Assembly (NCBI RefSeq): GCF_003334255.1
Contig: NZ_QOWU01000015.1
Source of the DNA: Escherichia coli
GTDB taxonomy: Bacteria; Pseudomonadota; Gammaproteobacteria; Enterobacterales; Enterobacteriaceae
DNA: 64,000 bases
Direction: 5' to 3' (one strand)
The translations under genes were made by a program, and so were the position numbers. Positions 31,277 to 59,605 of the stretch are shown here, one piece after another (positions within the stretch are counted from its first letter, which is position 1; every line of letters begins with the position of its first letter). The notes under the pieces are model-generated. The model was not told the DNA's origin. It did no database searches and worked only from the letters and a program-made list of their open reading frames with translations.

Positions 31277-31375
31277 CTATTTTTGTGCCATAAGGATGTT
31301 GCTGGTTGGTTGCTAATATGTGAAATAGTTAATTTCTACCAGCTGAGACGTTTTTTCGATAACAAGGGGAAGGTG

Positions 31376-32266
31376 ATGGAACTACGGCATTTACGCTATT
31401 TCGTCGCAGTGGCGCAGGCACTGAACTTTACCCGTGCGGCGGAAAAACTGCATACCTCACAGCCTTCGTTAAGCAGCCAGATCCGCGATCTTGAAAACTG
31501 TGTCGGTGTTCCGTTACTGGTGAGGGATAAGCGCAAAGTCGCGTTGACGGCGGCGGGAGAATGTTTTCTCCAGGACGCGCTGGCAATCCTCGAACAAGCG
31601 GAAAATGCCAAATTACGGGCGCGGAAAATTGTTCAGGAAGACAGACAATTAACCATTGGCTTTGTGCCATCGGCGGAAGTGAATTTATTGCCAAAAGTAT
31701 TACCGATGTTTCGTCTCAGACAGCCAGACACCTTGATTGAGCTGGTGAGTTTAATCACCACGCAACAGGAGGAAAAAATTCGCCGTGGTGAACTCGACGT
31801 CGGCTTAATGCGCCATCCTGTTTATAGCCCGGAGATTGATTATCTGGAGCTTTTTGACGAACCATTAGTGGTGGTGTTACCGGTTGATCACCCTTTAGCA
31901 CATGAAAAAGAGATCACCGCCGCGCAGCTTAATGGCGTGAATTTCGTCAGTACCGATCCGGCGTATTCCGGTTCGCTTGCGCCGATCGTTAAAGCGTGGT
32001 TTGCGCAAGAAAACAGCCAGCCAAATATCGTCCAGGTGGCAACGAATATTCTGGTGACCATGAATCTGGTGGGCATGGGGCTGGGCGTCACTTTGATACC
32101 CGGTTATATGAATAATTTTAATACCGGACAGGTTGTTTTTCGTCCCATTGCCGGAAATGTGCCTTCCATTGCTTTACTGATGGCGTGGAAGAAAGGGGAG
32201 ATGAAGCCGGCATTACGCGATTTCATCGCCATTGTGCAGGAACGTTTGGCAAGCGTAACGGCATAA
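31376..32266 (+). CDS. hcaR: LysR-type activator of the hca operon (296 aa)
   Basis: MELRHLRYFVAVAQALNFTRAAEKLHTSQPSLSSQIRDLE; divergent from hcaE. Confidence 0.9.
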   Translation: MELRHLRYFVAVAQALNFTRAAEKLHTSQPSLSSQIRDLENCVGVPLLVRDKRKVALTAAGECFLQDALAILEQAENAKLRARKIVQEDRQLTIGFVPSAEVNLLPKVLPMFRLRQPDTLIELVSLITTQQEEKIRRGELDVGLMRHPVYSPEIDYLELFDEPLVVVLPVDHPLAHEKEITAAQLNGVNFVSTDPAYSGSLAPIVKAWFAQENSQPNIVQVATNILVTMNLVGMGLGVTLIPGYMNNFNTGQVVFRPIAGNVPSIALLMAWKKGEMKPALRDFIAIVQERLASVTA

Positions 32267-32425: not shown

Positions 32426-33565
32426 ATGGTTTTGCAATCCACGCGCTGGTTGGCGCTCGGCTATTTCACATACTTTTTTAGTTACGGCATTTTTCTACCT
32501 TTCTGGAGCGTCTGGCTTAAAGGGATTGGTTTAACGCCAGAAACCATCGGCCTGTTATTGGGGGCAGGTCTGGTTGCCCGTTTTCTCGGGAGTTTGCTCA
32601 TCGCGCCCCGCGTCAGTGATCCTTCTCGCCTGATTTCCGCCTTGCGCGTGCTGGCAATGATGACACTTCTCTTTGCTGTCGCCTTCTGGGCGGGGGCGCA
32701 CGTAGCGTGGCTGATGCTGGTGATGATTGGCTTTAACCTCTTTTTCTCACCGCTGGTACCGTTGACCGATGCACTGGCGAATACGTGGCAAAAGCAGTTC
32801 CCGCTTGATTACGGCAAAGTGCGACTGTGGGGCTCGGTGGCGTTTGTCATTGGCTCGGCGCTGACGGGCAAACTGGTCACTATGTTTGATTATCAGGTGA
32901 TCCTCGCGCTGTTGACATTGGGCGTGGCATCCATGCTGCTCGGCTTTCTCATCCGTCCGACGATTCAGCCACAAGGGGCAAGCCGCCAGCAGGAGAGCAC
33001 CGGTTGGTCAGCGTGGTTGGCGCTGGTTCGCCAGAACTGGCGCTTTCTGGCCTGCGTTTGTTTATTGCAGGGGGCACATGCGGCCTATTACGGTTTTAGC
33101 GCCATTTACTGGCAGGCAGTTGGCTACTCGGCCTCGGCGGTGGGCTATTTGTGGTCGCTGGGCGTAGTGGCGGAAGTCATTATCTTTGCGCTGAGTAATA
33201 AACTTTTCCGCCGTTGTAGTGCACGCGATATGCTGTTGATCTCGGCGATTTGCGGCGTAGTGCGCTGGGGCATTATGGGAGCAACTACGGCGTTGCCGTG
33301 GTTGATAGTGGTGCAAATTCTGCATTGCGGCACCTTCACGGTCTGCCACCTGGCCGCCATGCGTTATATTGCTGCTCGCCAGGGTAGCGAAGTCATCCGT
33401 TTACAGGCGGTTTACTCTGCCGTCGCGATGGGCGGCAGTATCGCTATCATGACCGTTTTCGCCGGTTTCCTGTATCAATATCTGGGCCACGGCGTGTTCT
33501 GGGTGATGGCGCTGGTGGCGCTTCCGGCAATGTTTTTGCGCCCGAAAGTTGTTCCCTCATGCTGA
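32426..33565 (+). CDS. hcaT: MFS transporter (probable 3-phenylpropionate uptake)
   Basis: 12-TM-like hydrophobic profile; synteny. Confidence 0.9.
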   Translation: MVLQSTRWLALGYFTYFFSYGIFLPFWSVWLKGIGLTPETIGLLLGAGLVARFLGSLLIAPRVSDPSRLISALRVLAMMTLLFAVAFWAGAHVAWLMLVMIGFNLFFSPLVPLTDALANTWQKQFPLDYGKVRLWGSVAFVIGSALTGKLVTMFDYQVILALLTLGVASMLLGFLIRPTIQPQGASRQQESTGWSAWLALVRQNWRFLACVCLLQGAHAAYYGFSAIYWQAVGYSASAVGYLWSLGVVAEVIIFALSNKLFRRCSARDMLLISAICGVVRWGIMGATTALPWLIVVQILHCGTFTVCHLAAMRYIAARQGSEVIRLQAVYSAVAMGGSIAIMTVFAGFLYQYLGHGVFWVMALVALPAMFLRPKVVPSC

Positions 33566-34837
33566 TTCGAGCATTTTGCGGATCTGCTCCTGTTGATGTG
33601 TTGTCAGTGTCAGGTCCGTATAGATCAGCGGTGGTGAAAAGAGCGGTAACGGCATGGTATAAGGAGCAATAATCAGTGCCGCGCCTCGCGGAGCGCCTGT
33701 CTGCAAAAATGCCTTTACCGACATATGCTTAATGTTGAGCGGCAGTAACGTTAGTTCGCGTAACTGCTGCTCAATCTGCGCTTCTCGCTCGCTATCATTC
33801 CCGGTCAGTAGAATAATCTGTTTTTCATGCAGATCGTTTTCCTGCATTAGCCAGGCACCGAAAATCACCGCGACCAGACCACTTTCCTCATCAGAAAGAT
33901 GGACGCCGTATTCACTTTCAAATCCGGCCAGCGCCGCGCGGGTGGTGCGCACCAGGCGTGGGTACAGTCTGGCGAACTCTTCCGGCAGGGTATTATCAAT
34001 ACCGATGGCAAACAAACTGCGATTTAACGCCTGGGCGAGGTGGGTATAAAGCTGATCGCATAACCCCTGTTCATCATAAAAACGAACATTTCCCAGCTCA
34101 CGAAAATGGTTTACCAGACGTTTGATAGACTGACGCAATTGTCTGTCTCGCTGATGCGCATCACGCAATGGATCGGGAACCCGCAACATGGAAAAAAGTA
34201 ATGCCATAAACAGTGGCTCATCAGGCGGTACAGGCTGGAGCGCCCGACGCTGCCAGTGGCGTCCAATTTCCTGCGCTACCTGAAATTCAAGGCAGGATTC
34301 CGCCCAGCGACGTTGGAGCGGATTAAACTGAGGCGTCATTCCAGCGTGGTGCTGCAGCAAACAATATTGCAGATACAGACACAGGAAATGAATATCGCGC
34401 GATTCAAAGCGTTTTTGCAGCCGTCGGGAGCAGAGATTCACTAACGCTTGTAGATTGGTATCGTCGTAAAAGTTACGCGCAATTCCGCGCCGCTTCAATT
34501 CACTCTTCAGGGCGGGGGTGAATTGGCTGGTAATAAATGACGGACACAGACGGAAACCACGTCGTAGCCAGTGAAATAAACACAAACGTTGGTTAAGCAC
34601 TGTACCTTCAACCCGGTAGCTACCGTCATAACCAGTCGTCAGTGTGAGTTGATGATAGCGCAGGATCTCCCGTCCTGTTTCGCTGATATCAAGACTGGCA
34701 ATATCATCATCCACACCATTAAGCTCGCTGAAGGTTGCCATGGTGGCGGTCAACCCCGGCTGAAAGAGCGTCAGCAAGATCTGGCAGCGGCGCTGGGGAG
34801 CCGAAAGGACAGATGGTGGAGCAAGCGTAGGCATCAT
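33557..34837 (-). CDS. csiE: Stationary-phase-inducible protein CsiE (426 aa)
   Basis: MMPTLAPPSVLSAPQRRCQ...; synteny. Confidence 0.87.
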   Translation of the reverse strand: MMPTLAPPSVLSAPQRRCQILLTLFQPGLTATMATFSELNGVDDDIASLDISETGREILRYHQLTLTTGYDGSYRVEGTVLNQRLCLFHWLRRGFRLCPSFITSQFTPALKSELKRRGIARNFYDDTNLQALVNLCSRRLQKRFESRDIHFLCLYLQYCLLQHHAGMTPQFNPLQRRWAESCLEFQVAQEIGRHWQRRALQPVPPDEPLFMALLFSMLRVPDPLRDAHQRDRQLRQSIKRLVNHFRELGNVRFYDEQGLCDQLYTHLAQALNRSLFAIGIDNTLPEEFARLYPRLVRTTRAALAGFESEYGVHLSDEESGLVAVIFGAWLMQENDLHEKQIILLTGNDSEREAQIEQQLRELTLLPLNIKHMSVKAFLQTGAPRGAALIIAPYTMPLPLFSPPLIYTDLTLTTHQQEQIRKMLESA

Positions 34838-35027
34838 CTGTAGATCTCCCATAAGCATAATTGATAAGAATAGCTAAAGTTTGCTCAAGGAAATGGCGAA
34901 GGGAATGCTAATCATCAGAAATGTTGGCAAGCGTCACAGAATTTTTCTCATCTTAAACTGTTCTGACCAGTGGATTAGCATGTCTTAAGGTGGTTTTGTG
35001 AATGATTATCGTGCTAGCGATCATGGG

Positions 35028-35882
35028 TTAGTTCTGCGGATTCAACGCGCTAAGGATAAAGTCCACCATCTGTTCGCGATAAACATCGCCGTGACGATCG
35101 GAAAAAGCATCAATGTGTTCGCCATCCGGGATTAGAATCAACCGTTTTGGCTCTTTTGCCAGGCTATACAACTTTTCGCTGTGCTGCCATGGGATAACGT
35201 GATCGGCTTTACCGTGAATGAGTAAAAGCGGGATCGGGCTGACGCTGGCGATGTAATTTTCGCCACTGTAACTCTCATCAAGTAAGTAGCCACTGCCGGG
35301 GATCATCTGGTTGGCGATGGTTGCATAAGAGGCAAATGTGGAGTCGAGGATCACCGCACGTATGCCTTCACGATCACCCTGACCAATAACAGCAAGAATA
35401 TTCGCCCCGCCAATACTCTGCCCGAACAGCACCAGCCGTTGTGGGTTTACATCACTGCGATGGCGCACCACATTGATGGCGCTTTGCGTATCGTCCAGCA
35501 ATCCGGCCTGGGACGGCGTGCCTTTTGATTTACCAAACCCGTGATAATCAAACATAAAAACGTTGAAATTACGCTCGGGTAACCAACTGACCAGCGGCCA
35601 GTGGGCGGACATATTTCCGGCATTGCCGTGAGCATGAATGATGGTTGCGATAGCGTTGTCAGCAGGGCCCGTCGAAGAAGGAATAAACCAGCCTTGCAGA
35701 CGAGTACCGTCCTTAGCCGTAAATTCGACGGATTCCGCCGACCAGGGGTCGGGACCGTAAAGTTTATCGTCAGGATAATAGAAGAAGTTGATGGCAACGC
35801 GCGGCACTAAATAAACGCAGAAGGCAACAACAAAGAGAATAAACAGAATTTTGAGAACGCGTTTGTTCACTGGCAGTGCCAT
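35028..35882 (-). CDS. yfhR: Membrane-anchored alpha/beta hydrolase of unknown function
   Basis: N-terminal TM helix; GQSIGG nucleophile elbow; start trimmed to the internal ATG. Confidence 0.85.
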   Translation of the reverse strand: MALPVNKRVLKILFILFVVAFCVYLVPRVAINFFYYPDDKLYGPDPWSAESVEFTAKDGTRLQGWFIPSSTGPADNAIATIIHAHGNAGNMSAHWPLVSWLPERNFNVFMFDYHGFGKSKGTPSQAGLLDDTQSAINVVRHRSDVNPQRLVLFGQSIGGANILAVIGQGDREGIRAVILDSTFASYATIANQMIPGSGYLLDESYSGENYIASVSPIPLLLIHGKADHVIPWQHSEKLYSLAKEPKRLILIPDGEHIDAFSDRHGDVYREQMVDFILSALNPQN

Positions 35883-36026
35883 AACCTTTCCTTGCGACTT
35901 CTTTATCATCCATTAATCGGGGAAAGATGGTGGGAGAGTGACGAAAGAAAGTAAAGCAGTGAGGAAGTATTTCGGAATAGCGCCTGAAAGGCGAGGGCGG
36001 GTGAGTGATATCACCCGCCTGAGTCA

Positions 36027-36830
36027 TTAACGCTTCAGAGCGTCGCTTAACTCGTCACGCATGTTCGCCAGCATGGCTTTAACAACGCGCGGGTTACCAG
36101 CAACGATGTTACCGGTCAGCATATAGTTATGACCACCGGTGAAGTCGCTGACGATGCCGCCCGCTTCACGAACCAGCAGCTCGCCTGCAGCGAAGTCCCA
36201 CGGGCGCAGACCGATTTCAAAGAAACCGTCAACACGACCCGCAGCGACGTAAGCCAGATCCAGCGCCGCAGAACCGGTACGACGGAAGTCTGCACATTCG
36301 TTGAATAGTTTGCCGACGATGTTGATGTAGGTAGTGGCGTACTGTTTGGCTTTGAACGGGAAGCCGGTCGCCAGAATAGTACCGTCGAGATCGCGAGCGG
36401 TGCTGCCGCGCAGACGGTAGCCGTTCAGCTGTGCGCCCTGACCGCGAGTGGCGGTGAACAGTTCGTTACGCATAGGATCGTATACCACAGCAACTTCGGT
36501 GCGGCCTTTGATACGAACAGCGATAGATACCGCGAAGTGCGGCAGACGTTTGATAAAGTTGGTAGTGCCATCCAGTGGATCGATAACCCATTGAACATCC
36601 TGATCAGTACCTTCAAGTTCACCGCTTTCTTCGGTGATGATGGTGTGCTGTGGGTAAGATTTACGAATCGTGTCGATAATCACCGCTTCGGCAGCTTTAT
36701 CTACGTTGGTCACGAAATCGTTACTGCCTTTCTGGCTCGCTTCTACAGCGTCCGGGGTTTCATAGTTTTTGGCAATTAAATTACCCGCCTTGCGCGCTGC
36801 GCGCACGGCGATGTTCAGCATCGGATGCAT
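36027..36830 (-). CDS. suhB: Inositol monophosphatase
   Basis: MHPMLNIAVRAARKAGNLIAKNY...; WVIDPLDGT motif. Confidence 0.95.
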   Translation of the reverse strand: MHPMLNIAVRAARKAGNLIAKNYETPDAVEASQKGSNDFVTNVDKAAEAVIIDTIRKSYPQHTIITEESGELEGTDQDVQWVIDPLDGTTNFIKRLPHFAVSIAVRIKGRTEVAVVYDPMRNELFTATRGQGAQLNGYRLRGSTARDLDGTILATGFPFKAKQYATTYINIVGKLFNECADFRRTGSAALDLAYVAAGRVDGFFEIGLRPWDFAAGELLVREAGGIVSDFTGGHNYMLTGNIVAGNPRVVKAMLANMRDELSDALKR

Positions 36831-37690: not shown

Positions 37691-37872
<182 letters not shown>

Positions 37873-38538: not shown

Positions 38539-38649
38539 TAAAAAGAATTCAGAATCAGGCCGGAGTGCTAAATACTCCGTAAACACGGTCGTACATCCAG
38601 CCGGTAGCCTGATTCCTTGCATTGAGTGATGTACGGAGTTTATAGAGCA

Positions 38650-45247: not shown

Positions 45248-46024
45248 ATGTCCGAAACAAAAAACGAACTTGAAGACCTGCTGGAAAAAGCAGCAACTGA
45301 ACCGGCGCACCGCCCGGCCTTTTTCCGTACTCTACTGGAATCCACCGTCTGGGTGCCTGGTACGGCGGCGCAGGGCGAGGCTGTGGTTGAAGATAGCGCG
45401 CTTGATTTACAGCACTGGGAAAAAGAAGACGGCACCAGCGTCATTCCTTTTTTCACCTCGTTAGAAGCACTTCAACAGGCGGTTGAAGACGAACAGGCAT
45501 TTGTCGTAATGCCCGTTCGCACGCTGTTTGAGATGACACTTGGCGAAACGCTCTTCCTTAATGCCAAACTGCCAACCGGTAAAGAATTTATGTCGCGTGA
45601 AATCAGTTTGTTGATTGGTGAAGAGGGAAATCCGCTGAGCAGCCAGGAAATCCTGGAAGGCGGTGAATCGCTGATATTATCGGAAGTCGCAGAGCCGCCA
45701 GCACAAATGATTGATTCACTCACCACCTTATTTAAAACCATTAAGCCGGTGAAGCGTGCTTTTATTTGTTCAATTAAAGAGAACGAAGAGGCACAGCCTA
45801 ATTTACTTATTGGCATTGAAGCCGATGGTGATATCGAAGAAATTATTCAGGCGACGGGAAGTGTAGCGACCGATACATTACCTGGCGATGAACCAATCGA
45901 TATTTGTCAGGTGAAAAAAGGGGAAAAAGGAATTAGCCACTTTATTACCGAACATATTGCGCCATTCTATGAACGTCGCTGGGGTGGTTTTTTGCGTGAC
46001 TTTAAACAGAATCGGATAATCTAA
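45248..46024 (+). CDS. sseB: SseB, enhancer of serine sensitivity (start alternatives: GTG 45239 or ATG 45248)
   Basis: MSETKNELEDLLEKAATEPAHRPAFF...; synteny with sseA. Confidence 0.85.
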   Translation: MSETKNELEDLLEKAATEPAHRPAFFRTLLESTVWVPGTAAQGEAVVEDSALDLQHWEKEDGTSVIPFFTSLEALQQAVEDEQAFVVMPVRTLFEMTLGETLFLNAKLPTGKEFMSREISLLIGEEGNPLSSQEILEGGESLILSEVAEPPAQMIDSLTTLFKTIKPVKRAFICSIKENEEAQPNLLIGIEADGDIEEIIQATGSVATDTLPGDEPIDICQVKKGEKGISHFITEHIAPFYERRWGGFLRDFKQNRII

Positions 46025-46028
46025 AATA

Positions 46029-46047
46029 TGCCGCCCAAAGGGCGGCA
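46029..46047. terminator. Short GC hairpin between the sseB stop and the small ORF stop; possible bidirectional terminator
   Basis: tgccgccc-aaa-gggcggca; U-rich sequence follows on the minus strand. Confidence 0.4.
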
Positions 46048-46054
46048 TTCGGGC

Positions 46055-46180
46055 TTACTTGCTGCTCTGAAGGTTGTTAACCACCAGTAAATTGTCGCCG
46101 GAGAGACTCCGGTTATTATTTACCTCGGTTAACAGCGCACCAGAAACAATAAGTACGATACAAAAGCACCGTATCTTCAT
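46055..46180 (-). CDS. Candidate 41-aa small hydrophobic protein (type I toxin-like; possibly the ryfA/timP class)
   Basis: ATG...TAA ORF translating MKIRCFCIVLIVSGALLTEVNNNRSLSGDNLLVVNNLQSSK; hydrophobic N-terminal 17 residues; not in the supplied ORF track (below its size cut-off). Confidence 0.4.
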   Translation of the reverse strand: MKIRCFCIVLIVSGALLTEVNNNRSLSGDNLLVVNNLQSSK

Positions 46181-46310
46181 TGTGCGGTCCATGCGAAGAC
46201 CGCATCACGACAGCACCACTGGCGATATTGCCGCGATAGCAAGCGCTGTGAAACACCTGCATTTACGGCCACGGAACATCCTTTCCTAAAGCCAGCGCCC
46301 GTTTGCGAGA

Positions 46311-46507
46311 CGGCGGAAAGGGCCGCAGTGGATAATACACTAACAGAACAATAATAACTCTCTTTTGCTTGACAAAAAGAGAGTTACTGGCGAGTATTGT
46401 CTCCGCTGAGACGCGCTTGCATTACTACGGTAATACAACCTGCTGGAAAGGCCGCGAACCGGACCAGCAACAAAAAACCGCCTGATTTTGGCGGTTTTTT
46501 GTTTTTT
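46311..46507 (+). repeat. Direct repeat copy 1 of an sRNA-like module
   Basis: Begins cggcggaaagggccg; contains perfect 9-bp-stem hairpin ctctctttt-gcttgaca-aaaagagag with TTGACA in the loop; ends ccgcc..ggcgg plus T-run. Confidence 0.7.
46404..46507 (+). ncRNA. Candidate ~100-nt sRNA 1 (antitoxin-like); predicted, not verified
   Basis: TTGACA (46369..46374), 17-bp spacer, gagtat (46392..46397); Rho-independent terminator at 46478..46507. Confidence 0.3.
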
Positions 46508-46632
46508 AAAGGAAAGTGAATTTACATGTTTAAGTAATATCTTTTACCGGTTAGAATTTTTAATTTTGAGCAGGATTTGTTTATATTTGTCTGAATTCAG
46601 ACTAATAAGCCAGGTTATTTTATTACCGAACA

Positions 46633-46826
46633 CGGCGGAAAGGGCCGGTGTCGATAATACGCTAAATAAACAATAATTACTCTCTTTTGCTTGACAAAAA
46701 GAGAGTTACTGGTGAGTATTGTTTTGCTGTGAAGCACCTGCGTTGCTCATGTAACACAAGTCAACCTGCTGGAAAGGCCGCGAACCAGACTAGCAATAAA
46801 AAACCGCCAAATTCGGCGGTTTTTTA
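46633..46826 (+). repeat. Direct repeat copy 2 of the same module
   Basis: Same start box, same 9-bp hairpin (46680..46705), same gctggaaaggccgcgaacc box, same terminator type; about 322-bp period. Confidence 0.7.
46726..46826 (+). ncRNA. Candidate ~100-nt sRNA 2 (sibling of sRNA 1); predicted, not verified
   Basis: TTGACA (46691..46696), 17-bp spacer, gagtat (46714..46719); terminator at 46804..46825, which also lies just downstream of sseA on the other strand. Confidence 0.3.
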
Positions 46827-58376: not shown

Positions 58377-59495
58377 ATGCATAACCAGGCTCCAATTCAA
58401 CGTAGAAAATCAACACGTATTTACGTTGGGAATGTGCCGATTGGCGATGGTGCTCCCATCGCCGTACAGTCCATGACCAATACGCGTACGACAGACGTCG
58501 AAGCAACGGTCAATCAAATCAAGGCGCTGGAACGCGTTGGCGCTGATATCGTCCGTGTATCCGTACCGACGATGGACGCGGCAGAAGCGTTCAAACTCAT
58601 CAAACAGCAGGTTAACGTGCCGCTGGTGGCTGACATCCACTTCGACTATCGCATTGCGCTGAAAGTAGCGGAATACGGCGTCGATTGTCTGCGTATTAAC
58701 CCTGGCAATATCGGTAATGAAGAGCGTATTCGCATGGTGGTTGACTGTGCGCGCGATAAAAACATTCCGATCCGTATTGGCGTTAACGCCGGATCGCTGG
58801 AAAAAGATCTGCAAGAAAAGTATGGCGAACCGACGCCGCAGGCGTTGCTGGAATCTGCCATGCGTCATGTTGATCATCTCGATCGCCTGAACTTCGATCA
58901 GTTCAAAGTCAGCGTGAAAGCGTCTGACGTCTTCCTCGCTGTTGAGTCTTATCGTTTGCTGGCAAAACAGATCGATCAGCCGTTGCATCTGGGGATCACC
59001 GAAGCCGGTGGTGCGCGCAGCGGGGCAGTAAAATCCGCCATTGGTTTAGGTCTGCTGCTGTCTGAAGGCATCGGCGACACGCTGCGCGTATCGCTGGCGG
59101 CCGATCCGGTCGAAGAGATCAAAGTCGGTTTCGATATTTTGAAATCGCTGCGTATCCGTTCGCGAGGGATCAACTTCATCGCCTGCCCGACCTGTTCGCG
59201 TCAGGAATTTGATGTTATCGGTACGGTTAACGCGCTGGAGCAACGCCTGGAAGATATCATCACTCCGATGGACGTTTCGATTATCGGCTGCGTGGTGAAT
59301 GGCCCAGGTGAGGCGCTGGTTTCTACACTCGGCGTCACCGGCGGCAACAAGAAAAGCGGCCTCTATGAAGATGGCGTGCGCAAAGACCGTCTGGACAACA
59401 ACGATATGATCGACCAGCTGGAAGCACGCATTCGTGCGAAAGCCAGTCAGCTGGACGAAGCGCGTCGAATTGACGTTCAGCAGGTTGAAAAATAA
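58377..59495 (+). CDS. ispG: HMBPP synthase (IspG/GcpE)
   Basis: [36 protein letters not shown]... Confidence 0.96.
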
Positions 59496-59605
59496 TAACG
59501 TGATGGGAAGCGCCTCGCTTCCCGTGTATGATTGAACCCGCATGGCTCCCGAAACATTGAGGGAAGCGTTGAGGGTTCATTTTTATATTCAGAAAGAGAA
59601 TAAAC

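Follow-up and report, generated by a model that had tools for sequence, protein, structure and literature searches.

What does the product of yfhR act upon, and on which face of the membrane does it work? The gene belongs to the 'y-ome' of Escherichia coli, being a universal core gene under purifying selection and without an assigned substrate, and it lies in a stretch of 64,000 nucleotides of E. coli DNA (RefSeq assembly GCF_003334255.1, contig NZ_QOWU01000015.1; hereafter the window). A first-pass annotation, prepared from the sequence of the window, had described YfhR as a membrane-anchored serine hydrolase. The analysis presented here points to a carboxyl-ester hydrolase of the human ABHD13/ABHD12 type that would be tethered to the inner membrane, face the periplasm and have as its substrate an amphipathic lipid, or an acylated molecule, of the envelope, a reading that we judge to have about an even chance of being correct. 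The orientation of the catalytic domain, the lipoprotein ancestry of the family, the kinship with ABHD13 and ABHD12 and the R114H allele of the window strain are the points added to the first-pass annotation.

The assignment of YfhR to a superfamily is supported by both sequence and structure searches. Pfam models for Hydrolase_4 (4.5e-12), Abhydrolase_1 (3.6e-10) and Abhydrolase_6 matched the protein, and an AlphaFold2 (AF2) model built from a 123-sequence alignment (mean predicted local distance difference test score, pLDDT, 96.8; predicted template modelling score, pTM, 0.92) consists of an N-terminal helix (residues 7-32) that leads directly, without a linker, into a canonical alpha/beta fold; a single-sequence AlphaFold model was unusable (pLDDT 39.7), and the alignment-based model was used instead. 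The model gave 1782 fold matches in the PDB at E<=1e-3, the top 50 of which are alpha/beta hydrolases. Conservation of individual residues was counted in 113 full-length diverse representatives, mostly 30-50% identical, and the counts were confirmed on the 123-sequence alignment. The alpha/beta-hydrolase fold, the GQSIGG nucleophile elbow and the C-terminal His-containing motif (DGEHID) recognised in the first-pass annotation are all present, and the putative catalytic Ser, Asp and His as well as the oxyanion-hole 'HG' motif are kept in nearly all the representatives (Table 1), as is the block D112-Y113-R114-G115-x-G117-x-S119, which is nearly invariant. Loss of the catalytic Ser or His on alignment, which had been named as the outcome that would speak against a hydrolase, was not seen, the triad being intact. 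YfhR can thus be regarded with high confidence as an alpha/beta-hydrolase superfamily protein with a Ser156-Asp227-His256 triad. A small insertion at about residues 186-214 is predicted by the model to form a cap over the fold and may serve as a lid.

The N-terminal segment is informative on the location of the enzyme. The single transmembrane helix proposed earlier is borne out by the sole strongly hydrophobic segment of the protein, at residues 9-27 (Kyte-Doolittle 19-residue mean 2.69), and by the AF2 helix, behind which stands a juxtamembrane FFYYPD motif with a conserved Pro37. Among the 110 homologues with complete N-termini, 77 carry a [GAS]-Cys pair 5-12 residues before this Pro, and 58 homologues pass a strict PROSITE-like lipobox rule, the median Cys-to-Pro spacing in these 58 being 7 residues (examples being LLSGC-ISKPFYFP and LTGC-VDQLFYYP). 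This frequency and spacing indicate that lipoproteins, exported by Sec and held by a very short lipid tether, are the ancestral or at least the predominant form in the family. The lipobox pattern [LVI][ASTVI][GAS]-C was not found in E. coli YfhR, in which the Cys at position 22 is preceded by VAF (Phe at -1) and PRV occupies the place where relatives have TGC; the closest lipobox-bearing relative reads CVYLLTGC-AHSLFYYPDN, against CVYLVPRVAINFFYYPDD in E. coli. The enterobacterial clade (E. coli, E. fergusonii, Salmonella, Klebsiella and Citrobacter) follows the pattern CVYL(V/L)PRVAIN-FYYPD, and, to judge from these sequences, the Gly-Cys of the lipobox appears to have been replaced in this clade so that a hydrophobic helix without an LspA site remains. 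Other branches of the family also exchanged the lipid for a helix. Since the family carries lipoboxes, since K7, R8 and K11 sit N-terminal to the helix and since the best 80 genomic loci of homologues all come from diderm lineages, the helix is taken with fairly high confidence to be an uncleaved signal anchor (N-in/C-out), which would put the catalytic domain at the inner membrane, on its periplasmic side.

The only Cys of YfhR, Cys22, lies inside this helix. It is kept in all the enterobacterial homologues examined (P0011, P0067, P0071, P0080, P0082, P0089, P0095 and P0106), where the residue before it is F, V, I or Y and hence unfit for a lipobox; one relative (P0107) has the helix Cys and, 7 residues onward, a true LTGC lipobox. 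A delta-yfhR strain is among the 59 mutants that were chosen for the Cys oxidation of their proteins in OxICAT (PMC6351232), and neither YfhR nor a Cys22 peptide was present in the supplementary tables searched for that paper. Detection in OxICAT would imply that YfhR is made, that its N-terminal segment is kept with a free thiol and that the anchor is retained. Lack of expression had also been named earlier as a finding that would speak against the gene; indirect signs of expression come from this mutant set and from RNA sequencing (RNA-seq) of enterohaemorrhagic E. coli (EHEC), in which yfhR was two-fold induced during growth in ground beef with its microbiota (PMC5543532).

The nearest relatives with a known identity were also sought. 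The human ABHD13 and ABHD12 sequences were verified by exact look-up as ABHDD_HUMAN and ABD12_HUMAN, the latter entry being named 'lysophosphatidylserine lipase ABHD12'. ABHD13 (Q7L211) and YfhR are 29% identical in an alignment of 265 aa (E 1e-27) that opens at the juxtamembrane motif and extends as far as the C-terminus. The ABHD13 motif LLYFPE, which follows its own helix, aligns with FFYYPD, and the ABHD13 motifs HGNAGN, DYRGYGKSEG, GRSLGG, Asp and His (PDGTHND) align with the corresponding motifs of YfhR. The ABHD13/Bem46 architecture, namely a membrane helix, [FY][FY]xP, HGNAGN, DYRG[YF]GKS.G, G.S.GG, Asp and His, is common to both, with the reservation that the YfhR allele of the window has His in the DYRG motif. 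Further differences lie in the bacterial origin of YfhR, in its N-terminus, which is about 50 residues shorter, and in its relatives, for the most part anchored as lipoproteins and not by a helix. ABHD12 is a single-pass membrane-anchored enzyme, as YfhR is read to be, and is 31% identical to YfhR over 181 aa of the catalytic core (E 1e-16), sharing the HGNAG, FDYRGWG.S.G and GHSLG (G.S.G) motifs and the Asp; at 398 aa it carries extra insertions, and the BLAST alignment omits its N-terminal and His regions. On the strength of the two alignments, YfhR is the bacterial counterpart of the ABHD13/ABHD12/Bem46 'serine esterase' group, whose members of established activity cleave lipid esters. In a plant study, ABHD13/17 proteins are treated as de-S-acylases (PMC13116537).

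Solved structures are more distant. A PDB sequence search gave 25 matches at E<=1e-3, the best of which are weak (E 1e-10 to 1e-6) and comprise uncharacterised or promiscuous esterases, GrgF, PA2218, an MHETase-like enzyme, a thermophilic lipase and a monoacylglycerol lipase. The best PDB folds (GrgF, a Chloroflexus hydrolase, PET46, the Pf2001 esterase, feruloyl esterases, the TTL lipase with a monoacylglycerol intermediate and acetyl esterases) are found at 18-22% identity, with the catalytic domains of S9 peptidases ranked lower. The Pf2001 esterase (5g59), TTL lipase (7q4h), GthFAE (7wwh) and GrgF (6lzh), with Foldseek E-values of 1e-14 to 1e-18 and template modelling (TM) scores of 0.64-0.70, share the core fold and a small lid with YfhR; they differ from it in being soluble, without a membrane anchor or an FYYP juxtamembrane motif. 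A structure search of AFDB50 returned unnamed bacterial homologues only.

A further pointer to lipids comes from the genes that accompany homologues in other bacteria. Gene neighbourhoods were examined for the best 80 loci from one scan of species-representative genomes with a 20-sequence alignment as query, in which open reading frames (ORFs) were called and their products clustered. At 28 of the 80 loci, spread over several diderm phyla, the hydrolase gene adjoins a gene for a secreted protein of about 640 aa that is composed of the domains DUF7843, Lnb_N (PF13387, formerly DUF4105; 3.7e-56), DUF7842 and DUF7840. In the majority of the 28 cases the Lnb_N gene is immediately upstream of the hydrolase gene on the same strand, with intergenic distances of -35 to +70 bp. 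At 17 of the 28 loci it is preceded by the gene for a DUF3015 protein (2.1e-49), and most of the Lnb_N proteins retain the motifs GH[TS]xLR and ENC[AS]. Clusters of this kind, in which the hydrolase is a YfhR-like lipoprotein and the genes often overlap, recur among the related loci L025-L087, one example being that of Marinobacter confluentis (L079; Table 1). Lnb_N has been described as a permuted NlpC/P60 His/Cys acyltransferase domain that constitutes the lipoprotein N-acyltransferase of Bacteroides and has relatives among the lipid-targeting toxins of the type VI secretion system (bioRxiv 10.1101/2024.05.31.596883; PMC12994826). Literature searches found no description of the DUF3015/Lnb_N/hydrolase cluster, and searches on ABHD13 with bacterial lipoproteins, on DUF3015, on DUF7840 and on PF13387 gave nothing relevant. 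In a rough neighbour-joining (NJ) tree, 26 of the 28 Lnb_N-associated hydrolases fall in one clade, which is sister to the clade of E. coli YfhR. The operon of the sister clade supports an envelope acyl-lipid theme for the family, and for E. coli it does so indirectly.

Several other loci in this survey deserve mention. At L005, a 48%-identical homologue (5001-5891) lies 35 bp downstream of, and on the same strand as, a PLDc_2 gene (3398-4966), which we take to encode a phospholipase D or cardiolipin synthase-like protein; this is a single case, which likewise hints at lipids. Five metagenomic proteins of 480-610 aa (P0126, P0152, P0219, P0229 and P0266) are tandem duplications of the hydrolase domain rather than informative fusions, and L028 carries two adjacent paralogues. 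P0146 (544 aa) has a multi-helix membrane domain of about 260 aa, which looks ceramidase-like, followed by a YfhR-like domain that brings a signal peptide and a lipobox (MLCGC) of its own; two adjacent genes may have been joined here by read-through in gene calling. ORFs of about 600 aa in Variovorax that resembled fusions were rejected as artefacts of longest-ORF calling in high-GC DNA. Two metagenome-assembled genomes (MAGs) labelled as different phyla, 'Alistipes senegalensis' (L024) and 'Oxalobacter formigenes' (L028), are near neighbours in the NJ tree and have two flanking ORFs (484 and 592 aa) with identical N-terminal sequences, and mis-binning of one of the two MAG contigs is likely.

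Taken together, these observations allow a mechanism to be proposed. The ancestor of YfhR would have been a lipoprotein, the lipobox having disappeared in the Enterobacteriaceae, and helix 7-32 would now hold the catalytic fold, with its small cap, flush against the periplasmic surface of the inner membrane. There the enzyme would cleave a carboxylic ester in some amphipathic molecule of the envelope. Lysophospholipids and monoacyl-lipids are candidates, as are acyl chains carried by a lipoprotein or another lipid. The reaction would pass through the usual acyl-Ser156 intermediate, stabilised by an oxyanion hole formed by HGN and the backbone of Ile157. An amphipathic envelope ester is considered the most likely substrate because the fold is held directly at the membrane surface, and this substrate class is put forward with moderate confidence. 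An ester hydrolase is preferred to a peptidase because the nearest solved folds are esterases and lipases and because YfhR is without a beta-propeller or a large cap. A broader possibility, which is speculative and which we consider unlikely as a whole, is that the YfhR family represents the bacterial root of the ABHD13/ABHD12 lipid hydrolases and acts as the deacylating partner in acyl-transfer reactions of the envelope, joined in many diderm bacteria with the secreted Lnb_N acyltransferase and the DUF3015 protein in a hitherto undescribed module of three genes for remodelling envelope lipids or lipoproteins; E. coli YfhR would then be an orphaned member that clears lyso-lipids or trims the acyl chains of lipoproteins at the periplasmic leaflet of the inner membrane.

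A number of points weigh against the proposed lipid-ester hydrolase. Literature searches with the gene name and identifiers gave no biochemical or topological experiment and no functional study of YfhR, and a match for P77538 proved to be a plasmid catalogue number; as NCBIfam, too, offers no equivalog model near its curated cutoff, the statement of the first-pass annotation that the substrate is unassigned still holds. The lysophospholipids of E. coli are already handled by TesA, PldB and LplT-Aas, so that a lysophospholipase role for YfhR would be redundant, and to our knowledge ABHD13 itself has no firmly established substrate. The loci of the E. coli YfhR clade are without Lnb_N or another conserved lipid-related neighbour, the operon being that of the sister clade; outside the Enterobacteriaceae no recurring neighbour gene was found in the E. 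coli clade, and in the window the neighbours of yfhR are suhB and csiE, with no Lnb_N gene at the locus, to which this check was limited. The positive-inside bias at the helix is modest, with R28 and K40 just C-terminal of it; the Pfam model Peptidase_S9 matches YfhR at 1.8e-7 (catalytic domain only), and the K-12 annotation reads 'putative peptidase'; and the R114H substitution may lower activity in the window strain.

YfhR could instead be an esterase for small non-lipid esters (of the O-acetyl or feruloyl type, xenobiotic esters or lactones) that works in the periplasm or at the membrane surface, the anchor serving only to keep the enzyme in the envelope. This is unlikely. In its favour, feruloyl and chlorogenic esterases, acetyl-xylan esterases, a PETase-like enzyme and the Pf2001 esterase are among the top folds, the cap is small, and the best NCBIfam match is to the quorum-quenching acyl-homoserine lactonase UilS (NF047920). 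The fold matches share only about 20% identity with YfhR, however, and the UilS match is partial, covering residues 76-189 only and scoring 61.3 bits against a cutoff of 400. A substrate embedded in the membrane is favoured instead by the conserved lipid tether of 7 residues, by the kinship with ABHD12/13 and by the sister-clade operon with its acyltransferase.

The possibility of a serine peptidase of the S9/S33 type, trimming peptides or the remnants of lipoproteins or signal peptides at the membrane, appears improbable. Besides the Peptidase_S9 match, it would account for the description of Hydrolase_4 as 'serine aminopeptidase S33', for weak NCBIfam matches to proline iminopeptidases and for the presence of an S9 carboxypeptidase and the DPP4 catalytic domain among the folds. 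The proline iminopeptidase models (TIGR01250, NF045945 and NF045948), however, score 25-30 bits against cutoffs of 167-500, and PDB searches, whether by sequence or by fold, place esterases ahead of peptidases. With 284 aa, modelled as a helix and one alpha/beta domain, YfhR has neither the beta-propeller of the S9 prolyl oligopeptidases nor a large cap, and its verified homologue ABHD12 is a lipase.

A location of the catalytic domain in the cytoplasm (N-out/C-in or peripheral), where it would act on lipids of the cytoplasmic leaflet or on acyl-thioesters, is more doubtful still. The modest charge bias at the helix and an N-terminal tail of just about 8 residues would permit it, but most homologues carry at the equivalent position a lipoprotein signal peptide, which needs export, and the basic residues K7, R8 and K11 precede the helix. 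The architecture also has a periplasmic parallel in PlaF (PA2949) of Pseudomonas aeruginosa, the structure of which we take to be PDB 6i8w and which, like YfhR, combines an N-terminal single-pass helix with an alpha/beta-hydrolase domain. PlaF is an inner-membrane phospholipase A1 that acts on membrane glycerophospholipids, with its domain in the periplasm (PMC9132575). It was absent from the 25 PDB sequence matches and from the top 50 fold matches and can be regarded as a design analogue only.

The periplasmic ester hydrolase proposed above may also be affected by the allele that the window strain carries. The motif F-D-Y-R-G-[YFW]-G-x-S-x-G of the group reads FDYHGFGKSKG in the window, the Arg at position 114 being replaced by His. 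The frequency of the two alleles was estimated with a 55-mer centred on the single-nucleotide polymorphism, so designed that the central mismatch blocks megablast seeding; among 5426 complete E. coli genomes, 297 gave a match with the His allele and 5077 with the Arg allele. Identity of residue 114 with a known ABHD12 disease mutation was considered and rejected, the Arg of the ABHD12 DYRG motif being counted as residue 206 and not 186. That YfhR is weakened or inactive in the window strain, as the prevalence of Arg in K-12 and the homologues and the rarity of the His allele might imply, is very improbable, since the replacement of Arg by His is semi-conservative, the allele persists in hundreds of genomes with the ORF and triad otherwise intact, and the Arg of DYRG is non-catalytic in alpha/beta hydrolases. 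The substitution may be neutral or mildly hypomorphic.

The periplasmic placement, the tie to ABHD13/ABHD12, the lipoprotein ancestry and the sister-clade operon together narrow the field, the obvious targets being lyso-lipids, or acylated molecules of the envelope, at the surface of the inner membrane. If the proposal is true, a missing hydrolase would be added to envelope lipid homeostasis, and a tractable bacterial model would be gained for the poorly understood ABHD13. The result for YfhR is correct, useful for work on the y-ome and unsurprising; what is most novel is a by-product of the analysis, the DUF3015/Lnb_N/hydrolase operon found in the sister clade.

Table 1. Coordinates of yfhR, of the features discussed and of the example gene cluster (positions in the window unless stated otherwise)
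Feature	Position	Strand	Remarks
yfhR coding sequence (CDS), 284 codons and stop	35028..35882	minus	ORF; RefSeq CDS with identical coordinates
Shine-Dalgarno-like AAGGAAAGG	35885..35893	minus	just 5' of the annotated ATG; read from sequence
N-terminal hydrophobic helix, residues 7-32	35787..35864	minus	AF2 helix
Cys22, sole Cys, inside the helix	35817-35819	minus	sequence
Juxtamembrane motif FFYYPD, residues 33-38	35769..35786	minus	directly after the anchor; Pro37 in 96% of homologues
Oxyanion-hole 'HG' motif, H85-G86-N87	35622..35630	minus	H 111/113, G 109/113, N 103/113
Codon 114, CAC (His), in the D-Y-R-G motif	35541..35543	minus	Arg in K-12 and in 108/113 homologues (96%)
Nucleophile elbow GQSIGG, residues 154-159	35406..35423	minus	Ser156 codon 35415..35417; Ser in 108/113
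Small cap/lid insertion (predicted), residues ~186-214	35241..35327	minus	three short helices after strand beta6; AF2 secondary structure
Putative catalytic acid Asp227, in HGKADHVIP	35202..35204	minus	Asp in 111/113 homologues
Putative catalytic base His256, in DGEHID	35115..35117	minus	His in 111/113 homologues
csiE	33557..34837	minus	neighbour of yfhR
suhB	36027..36830	minus	neighbour of yfhR
9-bp GC-rich hairpin after the suhB stop, upstream of yfhR	35996..36019	minus	-24.1 kcal/mol, z = -4.7, without a U-tract
Example cluster L079 (Marinobacter confluentis): DUF3015, Lnb_N protein, hydrolase	3617-4081, 4157-6022, 5992-6858		positions in locus L079

The gene itself is an already annotated core gene, and its identification is a confirmed observation that agrees with the standard reading. 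The ORF called in the first-pass annotation coincides exactly with the CDS that RefSeq annotates as yfhR (product 'alpha/beta hydrolase'), and its placement between csiE and suhB is likewise correct. The K-12 MG1655 equivalent is b2534, to which the product of the window gene is 98% identical with five residue differences. The longest form of the ORF on the minus strand runs from an ATG at 35909 to the end of the stop at 35028 (293 aa), while the start at 35882 gives 284 aa; the latter is favoured because AAGGAAAGG precedes the 35882 ATG and because the start Met of E. fergusonii and other homologues is equivalent to it. The window is chromosomal E. coli DNA: several complete genomes contain the stretch 34900-36030 at 100% identity, and all 5426 complete E. 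coli genomes match this stretch, always in the chromosome and in 5424 of them over at least 80% of its length. Representative homologues number 26,894 at E<=1e-3 and 373 at E<=1e-30. The ratio of nonsynonymous to synonymous substitution rates (dN/dS) is 0.12 against K-12, 0.05 against divergent Escherichia and 0.09 against Pseudocitrobacter, which indicates purifying selection; the presence in all 5426 genomes, the number of homologues and the low dN/dS place the ORF far beyond chance. Horizontal transfer was considered and rejected, the GC content of 0.45-0.53 in segments that overlap yfhR being ordinary for the region, and a search for a defence role with PADLOC gave no match for yfhR.

The neighbouring genes suhB, yfhR and csiE share one strand; farther out lie trmJ-iscRSU on the suhB side and hcaT/hcaR on the csiE side, and the order suhB-yfhR-csiE is conserved within the Enterobacteriaceae. 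The hairpin that follows the suhB stop (Table 1) is accompanied by a second small hairpin in the region 35981-36019 of the minus strand; since it is without a U-tract, it could be at most a partial terminator. A consensus scan of positions 34800-36100 found no sigma-70 promoter and did not call this hairpin a terminator; the sole terminator-like site of the scan lies inside the CDS and is probably due to chance. Rfam recorded no RNA family in or beside yfhR. Elsewhere in the window, matches at the Rfam gathering threshold were obtained for GlmY (8932-9079), naRNA4 (CssrE; 37751-37822) and the iscRS stability element (38539-38648), with further matches for ryfA (46023-46326), IS128 (46458-46666) and sroE (59495-59586), all of which are as expected for this E. 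coli region. In the K-12 annotation, the small protein IroK (b4706) overlaps the 3' end of hcaR, which occupies positions 31283-32266 of the window.

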